Below are positions 27,878 through 36,591 of a stretch of DNA of 64,000 bases, piece by piece. Each line of letters begins with the position of its first letter. Position 1 is the stretch's first letter. The notes beneath the pieces are model-generated. The model searched no databases. It worked only from the letters and a program-made list of their open reading frames with translations, and was not told the origin of the DNA. Source of the stretch: a virus; the IMG/VR virus record IMGVR_UViG_3300045740_000163, positions 1 through 64,000 of that record; one strand, written 5' to 3'. The position numbers and the translations under genes are program-made.

Positions 27878-27950
27878 TCGCGAGGGACGGAATCGAACCG
27901 CCCGTTTCTGAGCTATCTGCTCAGCGTTCTTCCTCTTGAACTACTCACGC
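27878..27950 (-). tRNA. atypical tRNA-Ile(GAT)
   Basis: cloverleaf with D-arm GTTC/GAAC, anticodon arm CTGAG-CAGATAG-CTCAG and T-loop TTCGATT; A at position 33; irregular acceptor/T-stem split. Confidence 0.7.
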
Positions 27951-27982
27951 AGCCCGATACCAGTGGTAGAGCGGGAACTTTT

Positions 27983-30943: not shown

Positions 30944-31282
30944 ATGTCAAACGCCATGATGTCCATCAAAATCTACAAACACTGCGACACCTGGGCCTTC
31001 ACGGATTTATCCAAAGGTCTCAGAGACGAGCCTTTCGTCTGTGGAATCCCGGAAATTATCAATTACTTCATCGAAAACTTTAGCGATCCTTCTAAAGAAA
31101 CGCACAGAATTATATTTTCAGCACGAAATTTCCCGCATTCACATGGAAAACTCGTAAAAACCGAGATGGAGTCCGGAGGAGCATGGTATTCCTACGAAAA
31201 CTCTATGAAAGGCTGGCTTTGCCCCGCAACATTGGAGTTTTTTGAAGAACATCCAGACGAACTGTACGTAAGGTTTGAGTAG
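30944..31282 (+). CDS. conserved hypothetical protein (DUF6717-like pattern)
   Basis: WAFTD...GL..EPFV.G...FSA..FP...GWLCPA...FF...P..LYV. Confidence 0.7.
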   Translation: MSNAMMSIKIYKHCDTWAFTDLSKGLRDEPFVCGIPEIINYFIENFSDPSKETHRIIFSARNFPHSHGKLVKTEMESGGAWYSYENSMKGWLCPATLEFFEEHPDELYVRFE

Positions 31283-31346: not shown

Positions 31347-31419
31347 TGGGGGTCGCGAGGATCGAACTCGCCTGAAATCGATTATGAGTCGACCGCTTTC
31401 ACCAGATAGCTAGACCCCC
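31347..31419 (-). tRNA. tRNA with CAT anticodon (Ile2 or elongator Met)
   Basis: GGGGGTC/GACCCCC acceptor; GTCGA-CTCATAA-TCGAT anticodon arm similar to bacterial Ile2; TATAGT about 10 nt upstream. Confidence 0.9.
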
Positions 31420-31569
31420 GTGCCTGCCACTATACTGACAATGGACCTTTTGGGGTCAGTTTACTCCGCCGAAAACCATAGGTATCTCGCCCGCGTCGTC
31501 GCGCGAGCTCTATATATAAAAAAAAGGCCGAATTGCGGGCAGATTGCGCCCACTATGTAACACAAACCT

Positions 31570-31690
31570 CGCGCGTGCGCGTATGCGCGTGCGTGTGTGC
31601 GTGTATGCGCGTGCGTGTACGCGTGTGCATGATGCGCGCGTGGGCGGGGGTGCGCGTTTTTCTACGCGCGTGTGCGCATGGCGTGCGCGC
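31570..31690. repeat. alternating purine/pyrimidine (CG/TG/CA) tract
   Basis: 62 nt of uninterrupted YR alternation (31570-31631) followed by shorter tracts. Confidence 0.9.
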
Positions 31691-31794
31691 TTCCTCTCCC
31701 TGCTGACTGAGCTTACCGAGCTCACCTAGTGTGCCAATCTGCAATCCGGTTGCAAGGGGTTGACCTAGTGCGCCGTGGTGTGATCTCATTAAGG

Positions 31795-32620
31795 GGTCGA
31801 AGGGCGAGAGCCCGATCGGCAGAACCTGGACAACCTGCAGCCCACGCGTCGCCACCCGGTACGATCCCGGCGGTTGATCAGCCAAGCCCTGCGAACCTAC
31901 GCGTTCCCGCTTGTGCCGATCGCCAAACCGTCACTCCATCGTTCCGACAGGCTCCGCACCATGCTGTAGGATTCCAGCAACGGGCCGAGAGGCTCGACGA
32001 CATAGCAGCTCAGCCATCGCTCAGCTGGCCGCAGACGGAACGTCGCCATAAGTAGGCTCCCCAGGGAGCCGAGACGGCGAGACGACGGACTGTAGGCTAG
32101 GTGTTCCGACAGGCTGCGGACTGATCCCCCTGAGGCTAGTAGCCATAGGTGCGGCCGCCGAACCATTCAAGGCCCGCATCAGCACTAGAATCTCCCGCCC
32201 ACCCGGCGATGGCCAGCGCGTCACGCTAAGGGAAGCTCGGAGCTAGTGTCTCGCCCGGAAGGCCCTTAGTCCGCTGCTGTAGGTTTTTAACTTCCTACAG
32301 TTGTGCTGAGTTACAATCGCCATACTCTGACGACAGGCAAGCCGGGTGGGACCCGTGAGAAGTCCAGGGATCGAGCGTGGTGAGAAGTAACGCAATACCT
32401 AAACACTTTTTATCCGCAGGGATGTTGTGTCCGAGTACCTGCATCAAACACAGGTACGCTGGCACAAGCCGCAGGAAGTTATCTTCTACGGTCATCATCC
32501 CGGCGGGGCACAATTTAATAGCTTTTGTGCGCATTATGTGCGCCATAACTGACTTTAATTTGGGGTCAGTTTCCCGGATTCACTCTTTAGTGGGGCCTGG
32601 TATTACCTACCGGGCTCTAC
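31795..32620 (+). ncRNA. candidate large structured non-coding RNA
   Basis: no credible ORF; nested long-range helices, multiway junctions, GNRA loops and G-U pairs on the + strand; boundaries approximate. Confidence 0.6.
31802..31833 (+). promoter_or_regulatory. rrn-leader-like antiterminator (GNRA hairpin plus boxA)
   Basis: GGGC-GAGA-GCCC followed by GAACCTGGACAA, which resembles cyanobacterial boxA GAACCTTGAAAA; TTGACC at 31760. Confidence 0.55.
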
Positions 32621-32774
32621 TTAGGGGTGTGTTTGTTTGTATCCGTGATCACGTTTGATCATGGTGCAAAGTTTCGTTTCTGCTTTTATGTCTGACGCTC
32701 TCCCTGTGCGCTATAGTGCACACTGAGGGCCTCTACCCTCACCTTTTACTACAGTTTCACAGGTGTATTTAAAC

Positions 32775-33080
32775 ATGACTGAACTGACAATCAAGACCAA
32801 CAATCAGCCACCCCCGCTGTTCAATCCCTGCGAACTTTCGCAGTCTCAGCGTGCCAAACTGCGCCGCCAATTTGATTGGATGAGCGACGATGAGTTTGAC
32901 CATAATTGTTCATTCTTTCTCTATCGCGGTTGGTATTACAACCTCTCTGACTTCCTGACTAACACTAACCCTGACGGTATGTTTAAGGGTTGGCACGGTA
33001 TCGCTAGCGATTCCTATTTCACAGGAACGCTAGTCAAACTGTGCGGCAACGATGTTATCGTCGGCCGTTATTCTTCCTGA
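32775..33080 (+). CDS. conserved phage early protein
   Basis: FF.YRGWYY.LSDF...GW.G..SDSYF.G.LVK pattern; first gene of the early arm. Confidence 0.7.
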   Translation: MTELTIKTNNQPPPLFNPCELSQSQRAKLRRQFDWMSDDEFDHNCSFFLYRGWYYNLSDFLTNTNPDGMFKGWHGIASDSYFTGTLVKLCGNDVIVGRYSS

Positions 33081-36514: not shown

Positions 36515-36542
36515 TTGACTGTTCCGACAGGCATGGTATAGT
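36515..36542 (+). promoter_or_regulatory. sigma70-type early promoter
   Basis: TTGACT-16nt-TATAGT with an extended TGn. Confidence 0.75.
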
Positions 36543-36591
36543 GTGAGGGCCTCTCTTCTCATCACATCTTCTACGGTCATCATTTCGCATC

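Follow-up and report, generated by a model that had tools for sequence, protein, structure and literature searches.

A large structured non-coding RNA (ncRNA) of an apparently undescribed family is probably encoded at positions 31,795 to 32,620 of the sequence analyzed here, which comprises bases 1-64000 (the window) of the 86,390-bp IMG/VR virus record IMGVR_UViG_3300045740_000163, a record with direct terminal repeats that is judged complete. The gene arms of this phage are divergent, with mostly minus-strand genes to the left of ~31400 and plus-strand genes to the right of 32775, and a gap of 1.35 kb separates the minus-strand tRNA-Met(CAT) gene (31347-31419) from the first early gene on the plus strand (32775). 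The G+C content reaches 58-65% over ~31700-32400 (61-65% in the RNA stretch), compared to ~45% for the genome. To judge by its sequence, the RNA spans perhaps 31796 to ~32510, i.e., ~700 nt to the end of a 3' three-way junction, or ~780 nt (to ~32575) if the next hairpins belong to it. The interpretation favoured here, which we hold to be the probable one, is that the stretch constitutes the gene of this RNA, located between the gene arms and equipped with a putative antitermination-type leader.

The carriers of the RNA are uncultured freshwater phages, relatives of Synechococcus phage S-EIVl. The large terminase of the window exhibits 54% identity to that of S-EIVl, a phage from an arctic lake, while the next best phage reaches 24.5%, and the window is therefore regarded as an uncultured freshwater relative of that cyanophage lineage; Pfam families detected in the window also include a family A DNA polymerase and a D5-type primase/helicase. 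With the two flanking proteins as a lead, 25 loci were retrieved from IMG/VR, and six viral contigs were found to align with the stretch at 70-88% identity. These copies are mosaic, as whole blocks are swapped between otherwise close copies. A 34-nt degenerate pattern of the most conserved block was found in 23 metagenome contigs with 19 sample prefixes, and was absent from a collection of 185,579 prokaryote genomes, each representing a different species. After the duplicates (L015, L052, L054, L059, L060, L062 and L069) and two fragments (L048 and L051) had been removed, alignment A2 comprised 21 distinct, nearly full-length copies from viral and metagenome contigs. A BLASTN search of 31420-32775 against 50,697 GenBank phage records returned no match, nor did covariance models of the central domain (R1) and of the 3' domain (R2) match either half of S-EIVl, the nearest phage in culture, at E values up to 1; the strand-switch region of S-EIVl contains no G+C-rich stretch. 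Five distant relatives of the early gene (L017, L019, L020, L021 and L026) also possess a G+C-rich zone upstream of it, yet they share only short pieces with the stretch, i.e., a -35-like TTGAC, a 12-mer of the CCTAGACAA type and one hairpin, and give no match to R1. A scan of viral contigs with 16-mers yielded 21 loci, only the six known relatives among them aligning beyond the 16-mer; the other 15 were discarded as chance matches, none of which matches R1.

The fold and its strand are well supported by the pattern of change among these copies. When the 21 copies were analyzed together, RNAalifold predicted 65 pairs, 21 of which show a change on both sides in at least one copy. Since MAFFT shifts some module types by one column (type-B rows in P7 and P12), the domains were then evaluated separately. 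R1, a covariance model constructed from eight seed copies and searched with Infernal, returned 22 matches, 18 of them distinct and all on the expected strand, and none in the 15 chance loci. In the central domain 95.1% of 553 cells are paired and 13 of the 32 pairs exhibit both-side changes, while controls in which the 3' partners were slid by one to three columns reach 26-48%. This structure also holds out of sample, with 287 of 301 cells paired (95.3%) in ten distinct non-seed copies. R2, the structure of which was set by hand for the 3' three-way junction, produced 18 full-length matches of 75-103 bits on the plus strand, and matches of 21-33 bits on the minus strand; in this junction 90.0% of cells are paired and both-side changes occur in 12 of 35 pairs (slid controls 32-50%). 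Similar values were obtained for three peripheral modules: V3 type A (31998-32127, 13 copies; 95.1% paired, both-side changes in 10 of 38 pairs, slid controls 17-44%), V6 alpha (32297-32399, eight copies; 94.9%, 7 of 32, 32-42%) and V6 beta (ten distinct copies; 96.2%, 7 of 37, 34-48%). In none of the five domain alignments did any of 500 shuffles reach the observed covariation score or paired percentage. Regarding the composition of the alignments, A5 holds 14 of the 20 3'-domain copies, A7 holds the 18 sources with untruncated matches (L002, L049, L057 and L068, cut by contig ends, were excluded), A8 excludes L067, which is identical to L016 there, and A9 and A10 exclude L055, L057 and L064, which are identical to other rows.

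The first-pass annotation had read the G-U pairs and GNRA loops on the plus strand, and this reading is borne out. Over the five alignments 213 G-U cells were counted against 22 A-C cells, numbers which would be swapped if the minus strand were read, and the RNA is thus read on the plus strand, in agreement with the R2 bit scores above. Furthermore, the reverse-complement consensus folds more weakly (-67 versus -74, -41 versus -48 and -36 versus -41 kcal/mol), and GNRA loops (GAGA, GAAA, GCAA and GCGA) cap several helices when read on the plus strand. The predicted fold of the stretch itself (31795-32620) is more stable than that of all 20 dinucleotide-shuffled versions (z -3.9). Comparison of the copies shows in this way that the sequence is maintained in the form of a plus-strand RNA secondary structure, and the conservation and covariation among relatives on which the first-pass annotation made its case depend are present in 21 distinct copies and in all five domain alignments.

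Judged by its reading frames, the region is non-coding. The claim that no credible open reading frame lies between tRNA-CAT and 32775 agrees with the lack of any conserved open frame in the gap: stop-free stretches of 80-160 codons occur in each of the 21 copies, differing in strand, phase and place, and are expected because of the high G+C content, while the indels in A2 are not multiples of three. The opposing idea of a decayed protein gene or captured host DNA without a function of its own, to which the aberrant G+C content and the presence of such frames in every copy might point, is considered negligible and already contradicted, as the frames are not shared, the indels do not come in threes, the core pattern is missing from the 185,579 prokaryote species and the compensatory changes show selection on pairing.

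The comparison further shows, at the level of sequence, a conserved core on which peripheral hairpin modules are swapped, lengthened or capped off between copies (Table 1). The 5' hairpin P1 is one such variable module, taking the form GCC...GGGG-TTCG-CCCC...GGC and others in other copies. P2 changes from ACGAT/ATCGT to CGGTG/CACCG, TCAGT/ACTGA or ATGAT/ATCAT and encloses V2, of which three unrelated versions exist. Predicted pairs within the most conserved segment never vary and speak neither for nor against a helix there. The fourth pair of P4 is GC in eight copies, CG in six, GU in four, UG in two and UA in one. The V3 position is occupied by type A in 13 copies and by an unrelated type-B module in eight; its outermost four pairs (32006-09/32119-23) were dropped, as they are invariant and incompatible with P7. 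Two copies, L053 and L061, carry ACC-GCAA-GGT with a GCAA tetraloop instead of the V5 hairpin (32205-27), and in ten distinct copies a longer beta-type module lies between the same V6 closing sequences. In the 3' junction, for example, CGTAGGGATAGTG/CACTATCCCTACG of L050 corresponds to CCGCAGGGATG/CATCCCGGCGG of the window. The hairpins downstream of it, read by eye, also vary in a paired manner (CTGAC/GTCAG to TTGGC/GCCAA in L050; GCGCA/TGCGC to GTGC/GCAC in L016), and the 3' end of the RNA may lie within this row. Upstream of the predicted promoter, the inverted repeat of the window, which may be an operator or form an upstream hairpin, gives way in other copies to a different one, ATAAGC-N3-GCTTAT.

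Table 1. Features of the strand-switch region and of the second early promoter (window coordinates)
Feature	Position	Strand	Details
tRNA-Met(CAT)	31347-31419	-	
A-tract with TATATA box	31511-26		
Alternating purine-pyrimidine (CG/TG) repeat	~31565-31700		~130 nt, at the strand switch
Inverted repeat TGCAA-N5-TTGCA	31740..31754	+	just upstream of the -35-like hexamer
Predicted sigma-70-type promoter	31760..31789	+	-35 TTGACC 31760-65; 18-nt spacer; -10-like TCTCAT 31784-89
P1, 5' hairpin CGA-A-GGGC-GAGA-GCCC-GA-TCG	31798..31818	+	variable module, read by eye
BoxA-like 12-mer GAACCTGGACAA	31822..31833	+	nearly invariant across A2
P2	31861..31942	+	31861-65/31938-42, enclosing variable module V2
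Most conserved segment CCGACAGGCTCCGCACCATGCTGTAGGATTCCAGCAA	31943..31980	+	nearly invariant
P4, GNRA-capped hairpin CGGGCC-GAGA-GGCTCG	31981..31996	+	six pairs formed in 21/21 rows
V3 type A	32011..32116	+	P5 32011-19/32107-16; P6 32024-47/32076-101 (long, irregular); apical hairpin 32055-60/32065-70
Central domain	32112..32277	+	P7 32117-25/32265-73; V4 32148-53/32175-80, GNRA-capped tip; P9 32182-88/32243-49; P10 32192-99/32234-42; hairpin V5 32205-13/32220-27
P12, hairpin CTGTAGG-N10-CCTACAG	32277..32300	+	elsewhere CTGCAGG/CCTGCAG, CTGTAGA/TCTACAG
V6 alpha	32303..32398	+	closing helix 32303-14/32387-98; P14 32317-38/32362-83; hairpin 32343-47/32351-55
3' three-way junction	32411..32513	+	Ha 32415-24/32496-505; Hb+Hc long hairpin 32426-41/32451-67; Hd 32470-79/32484-92
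Downstream hairpin row	32509..32610	+	32509-15/32527-32; 32530-34/32540-44; AACTGAC-N-GTCAGTT 32547-73, then TTT; 32590-97/32603-10
Second early promoter TTGACT-GTTCCGACAGGCATGG-TATAGT and leader	36515..36583	+	

The complementary segments listed in the first-pass annotation all lie, base by base, where it had placed them, and the relatives separate those that are conserved from those that are not. Conserved with compensatory changes are the GAGA hairpin at 31981-96, GGCTCC/GGAGCC at 32055-70, CTGTAGG/CCTACAG at 32277-300 and the three-way junction closed by 32414-24/32496-506 together with its two inner hairpins. The second GAGA hairpin, at 31802-13, persists only as the variable 5' hairpin, with a sequence that differs between copies. 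The proposed helix 31813-21/31914-22 is not upheld, as it rests on a palindromic CGATCG and its partner is CCAATCC or absent in most copies; likewise, the arms of the supposed 10-bp long-range helix 32198-207/32341-50 belong to other covarying helices (32192-99/32234-42, 32205-13/32220-27 and 32343-47/32351-55), the last of which, a local hairpin, changes from CGGGT/ACCCG to CAGGT/ACCTG between copies. CTAAGGG/CCCTTAG within 32226-69 has to be given up, since 32265-73 pairs with 32117-25 instead (ACTGA/TTAGT to ACCGA/TTGGT), and the suggested switch or pseudoknot 31909-17/32461-69 depends on a one-base C insertion found only in the window. Other attempts were also set aside: an initial hand-set helix list on A2 contained register errors for P7, Hd and P3 and was superseded by the central-domain and 3'-junction tests, an all-versus-all covariation scan of the A2 columns mainly picked up clade effects (two module types) and was left unused, and for the 5' segment 31838-53 a partner search repeatedly pointed to CCACGC with GCGUGG, the latter immediately preceding TAACGCAATA, but this partner is already engaged in a covarying helix in alpha-type copies.

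As to novelty, this appears to be a genuine structured RNA of a family that is, by all indications, undescribed. The first-pass annotation had recognised no consensus of a known large phage RNA, and the Rfam searches concur that this large structured RNA class is absent from Rfam 15: the whole window at gathering thresholds yielded only two tRNAs, the segment 31300-32800 at E values up to 10 only the tRNA and low-complexity artefacts on the GT repeat, and four variant copies at E values up to 0.1 the same result, with no family. A group I or II intron was also rejected, given the absence of an Rfam match, the location between genes and the lack of a reverse transcriptase or homing-endonuclease frame beside the stretch. 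Full-text literature searches, evaluated mainly at the level of abstracts, produced no description of this RNA. The nearest comparisons are GOLLD and ROOL, which we take to be Rfam RF01998 and RF03087, respectively. By general background and PMC12286853, the likeness to GOLLD lies in a length of hundreds of nucleotides, an ornate, multi-domain fold with a conserved and a variable part, occurrence in phages and lake metagenomes and proximity to tRNA genes, while the difference is that there is neither a covariance-model match nor a visible common sequence motif; GOLLD, moreover, forms homo-oligomers. ROOL, which forms RNA-only cages according to PMC12286853 and PMC12515178, is likewise a large structured RNA tied to phages and tRNAs, yet it differs in giving no covariance-model match and in habitat and host group. 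A survey of structured RNAs in IMG/VR intergenic regions used the same data source and the same kind of evidence, i.e., covariation in phage intergenic regions, and reports 8,495 motifs of 29-151 bases (PMC10690425); by these lengths none of them can be the whole 700-nt RNA, although sub-domains or the widespread hairpin discussed below may be among them.

A promoter and a boxA-type leader are plausible on the basis of sequence. A -35-like hexamer (TTGACC, TTGACG, TTTACA or TTGTCA) is followed after exactly 18 nt by nAnnnT (GATGAT, CATACT or GAGAAT) in 16 of 20 copies, an arrangement that would place the start ~25-40 nt before the conserved 12-mer and, in the window, at a predicted ~31796. This 12-mer, GAACCTGGACAA, matches 10 of the 12 positions of the boxA of cyanobacterial rRNA spacers, GAACCTTGAAAA, as given in bioRxiv 10.1101/2021.01.08.426015. 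The arrangement resembles the antitermination site of rRNA operons (a boxB hairpin and boxA) in that a hairpin is followed within a few nucleotides by the boxA match, at most ~40 nt from the point at which a long, structured and untranslated RNA is predicted to begin; the difference is that a phage ncRNA rather than rRNA is involved and that the match is not significant alone, so that the comparison is a 'works like' claim only. By this analogy, the 5' hairpin and the boxA-like 12-mer suggest rRNA-style antitermination, and it is the position and conservation of the element from which we infer a boxA-type leader. The further proposal that the RNA is made immediately after infection would draw on the predicted promoter, which is weak in the window's copy, and on the position at the head of the plus-strand arm.

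Evidence for expression is weak. Twelve sequencing runs matched, none with half of the sampled words, and the four examined are all assembled contigs with a depth of 2-13. In one freshwater RNA library coverage is confined to 31592-32582, with none in the flanking bins.

In the favoured interpretation, transcription would proceed rightward from the promoter at 31760-89, the first 40 nt would form the hairpin and then present the boxA-like 12-mer, loading Nus factors as in host rRNA operons, and such loading would let RNA polymerase finish a long, untranslated and strongly folded transcript. Within that interpretation the leading candidate for a role, put forward tentatively and with doubts outweighing confidence, is that of a trans-acting architectural or decoy RNA produced from the head of the early arm, which would bind a phage or host factor via its invariant single-stranded segments. 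Such a role is prompted by the recurrence of GTTCCGACAGGC and TCTACGGTCATCAT in the promoter and ribosome-binding region of a downstream early gene, through which the level of the RNA could be coupled to early gene expression. Within the RNA, GTTCCGACAGGC is present at 31941, reaching into the most conserved segment, and a second time within V3 at 32103-14; outside it, the same sequence occupies the spacer of a strong promoter (36515-42, TTGACT-16-TATAGT). The 18-mer ATCTTCTACGGTCATCAT at 36566-83 is identical to 32481-98 of the junction, and the copy at 36566-83 stops 8 nt short of the ATG with which a 74-aa gene starts. As these copies are of the same sense, a shared binding partner is suggested rather than antisense pairing. 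Five relatives (L010, L011, L013, L014 and L018) retain both the second promoter and the leader core TCTACGGTCATCA, and in L016 only the leader core was found; the region 36515-61 shares its -10 element and leader hairpin with the first early gene. It was also observed that the promoter is followed by a covarying leader hairpin and then by TCTACGGTCATCAT just before the 74-aa gene, and that the whole 28-nt promoter, including the spacer, is invariant in four relatives, with one base differing in L010. The invariant spacer suggests, on sequence grounds, that a factor binds it.

A number of points weigh against the interpretation as a separate RNA gene or temper the evidence for it, beginning with function, which is a matter of inference only. 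The folding-energy comparison, while it bore out the dense pairing, leaves the strands unseparated: the opposite strand also beats its shuffles (z -3.4), the z-scores of the two strands are alike, and the energy therefore shows self-complementarity, not strand. The structures in A8, A9 and A10 (V3 type A, V6 alpha and V6 beta) were derived from the same alignments on which they were counted, the copies fall into few clades, which inflates the shuffle tests, and by the measure of 'further pair types' four of the five alignments do not exceed their shuffles (321, 491, 493 and 152 of 500). Long-range or tertiary pairings are settled neither by the A2 column scan nor by the partner search for the 5' segment. 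With regard to the ends of the RNA, the window's own -10, TCTCAT, misses nAnnnT and a consensus scan finds no promoter there, the boxA match alone is not significant (11 in the window at up to two mismatches versus 7.65 expected), and a terminator scan of the plus strand flagged no site in 31700-32720, so that the RNA and the early gene are separated by no canonical terminator; the conserved hairpin at 32547-73 is followed by only three T, and neither it nor the other hairpins of the downstream row were flagged. Finally, identical pieces of the stretch, and also of the flanking genes, are present in one riverine RNA library, one piece beginning at 31775, ~20 nt upstream of the predicted start, and contigs of such low depth from RNA libraries show presence, not transcription, ends or strand, the parts left uncovered carrying no weight.

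The long junction stem has a distribution of its own. This imperfect 15-bp hairpin, TGTCCAGAGTAYCTG-N9-CAGGTACGCWGGACA (32428-32465; Hb/Hc), in which an A-G mismatch and a T-G wobble are kept, was found in 56 of ~115 further viral contigs (L074-L186) fetched by a 15-mer. The contigs bearing it are mostly without other similarity to this phage and without the large RNA; the hairpin is often flanked by (GY)n repeats, often lies a few hundred nucleotides from a contig end, and differs in orientation relative to its flanks between some contigs (L092 versus L087). When R2 was run against 100 of these loci, 35 matches of 35-93 bits were obtained, one of which represents a family member. An early-gene homologue is situated ~300 nt away in 11 of the 56 contigs, on the same strand as the hairpin in nine and on the opposite strand in two. 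By its sequence distribution, Hb/Hc may itself serve many phages as a regulatory, processing or terminal element, and, because it is widespread without the large RNA, the 600-nt 5' part looks like an addition upstream of an older regulatory hairpin.

The alternative that survives best, which we consider unlikely but deserving of serious attention, holds that the folded RNA is no separate gene but belongs to the early operon, as its long 5' leader or as a precursor segment that is processed. Polymerases starting from 31760 would become termination-resistant at the boxA-like site and, passing the downstream hairpins, read into the early genes, and an RNase may cleave at the Hb/Hc stem, by analogy with rRNA operons and T7 early transcripts. 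The conservation of the boxA-like element suits this explanation, as do the lack of a canonical terminator in 32510-32775, the same-strand location of Hb/Hc ~300 nt upstream in nine of the 11 hairpin contigs with an early-gene homologue, and the RNA-library contigs that cross 32501-32651 and 32709-32948, although contigs cannot show a single continuous transcript. A terminator-like hairpin with a T-run (a U-run in the RNA) was observed at 32724-32741, a few nucleotides downstream of TATAGT and inside the leader of the first early gene, and could, by its sequence, be an attenuator needing antitermination. What speaks against a leader is that the first early gene has its own conserved -10 (TATAGT, 32712-17) and leader hairpin, both in common with 36515-61, that relatives without the 600-nt 5' part retain the early gene, and that a 700-nt core with invariant junction sequences far exceeds the needs of a leader.

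A bolder version of the RNA-gene interpretation, and a distinctly unlikely one, is that the RNA belongs to a new large ornate class of freshwater cyanophages that is ribozyme- or particle-like, with an invariant junction core and exchangeable arms. It would be made by way of the host rRNA antitermination and folding machinery through the boxB/boxA-like leader, and would act catalytically or as an RNA-only scaffold in host take-over, and not as a simple regulator.

A role in replication is very improbable. In that case the transcript would prime or activate phage DNA replication, either through a persistent hybrid cut to a primer, as for RNA II of ColE1, a structured transcript of several hundred nucleotides beside the replication control region, or through transcription that opens a nearby origin. 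The location at the strand switch of the divergent arms is in keeping with this, as are the nearby A-tract with its TATATA box and the alternating purine-pyrimidine tract, the paired GATC palindromes at 32648-63 and the many related contigs that end within ~600 nt of the region. However, no origin or antisense partner was identified here, the cumulative GC skew makes no turn, transcription heads away from the AT-rich box, which is situated upstream of the promoter, primers of the RNA II type need no modular multi-domain core, and the contig breaks are equally explained by the repeat tract and mosaic variants.

That the conservation acts on DNA, as an operator cluster, a packaging or terminal site, or cruciform palindromes between the arms, is scarcely credible for the stretch as a whole. 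The distribution of Hb/Hc in contigs without the large RNA, its frequent (GY)n flanks and its flipped orientation would agree with a DNA element, as would the presence of GTTCCGACAGGC in a promoter spacer and the frequent contig ends. Nevertheless, a ten-to-one excess of G-U over A-C cells is inexplicable by double-stranded DNA or a cruciform, GNRA loops are retained, a tetraloop takes the place of a helix, and nested multi-branch helices with both-side changes extend across 700 nt; the fit is poor already for the 5' 600 nt.

Further observations concern the surroundings of the RNA. Seven of 17 related contigs (L010, L012, L014, L018, L022, L023 and L025) begin or end upstream of the first early gene, at most ~620 nt away; the repeat tract, co-existing mosaic variants or a physical end of the genome could account for this assembly breakpoint. 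The purine-pyrimidine repeat (31565-31700), which also caused spurious Rfam microRNA matches, is found in L005, L002, L016 and L021, while unrelated sequence takes its place in L011 and L013. A CTGAC...TTTGGGGTCAGTTT hairpin occurs in two same-sense copies (31437-31462 and 32549-32572; 14 nt exact, 1110 nt apart) that flank the whole non-coding block, both being retained in relatives. Just left of the tRNA gene, a gene for a DUF6717 protein (30944-31282, plus strand) stands alone among minus-strand genes; it adjoins the non-coding block also in L017, L082, L114 and L157, and a tblastn search with its product against GenBank phages gave no match. The early 101-aa protein found counterparts in only five unrelated GenBank phages by tblastn, at 31-38% identity. 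Elsewhere in the window, ARAGORN predicts a tRNA-Ile(GAT) at 27878-27951, which the Rfam tRNA model did not report at its gathering threshold.

To our knowledge, only a handful of bacterial or phage RNAs longer than 500 nt with conserved multi-domain folds are known, such as GOLLD, ROOL and OLE. The solved structures of RNAs of this type have been surprising, while their function is open, and a further, unrelated class would be a new target for structure determination, for which the module swaps among the 21 copies, by marking core versus dispensable parts, make the design of constructs for probing or cryo-EM easy. Such a class would also provide a test of whether phages use host rRNA antitermination for long untranslated RNAs, and a handle on early regulation in a widespread and almost unstudied lineage of freshwater cyanophages.

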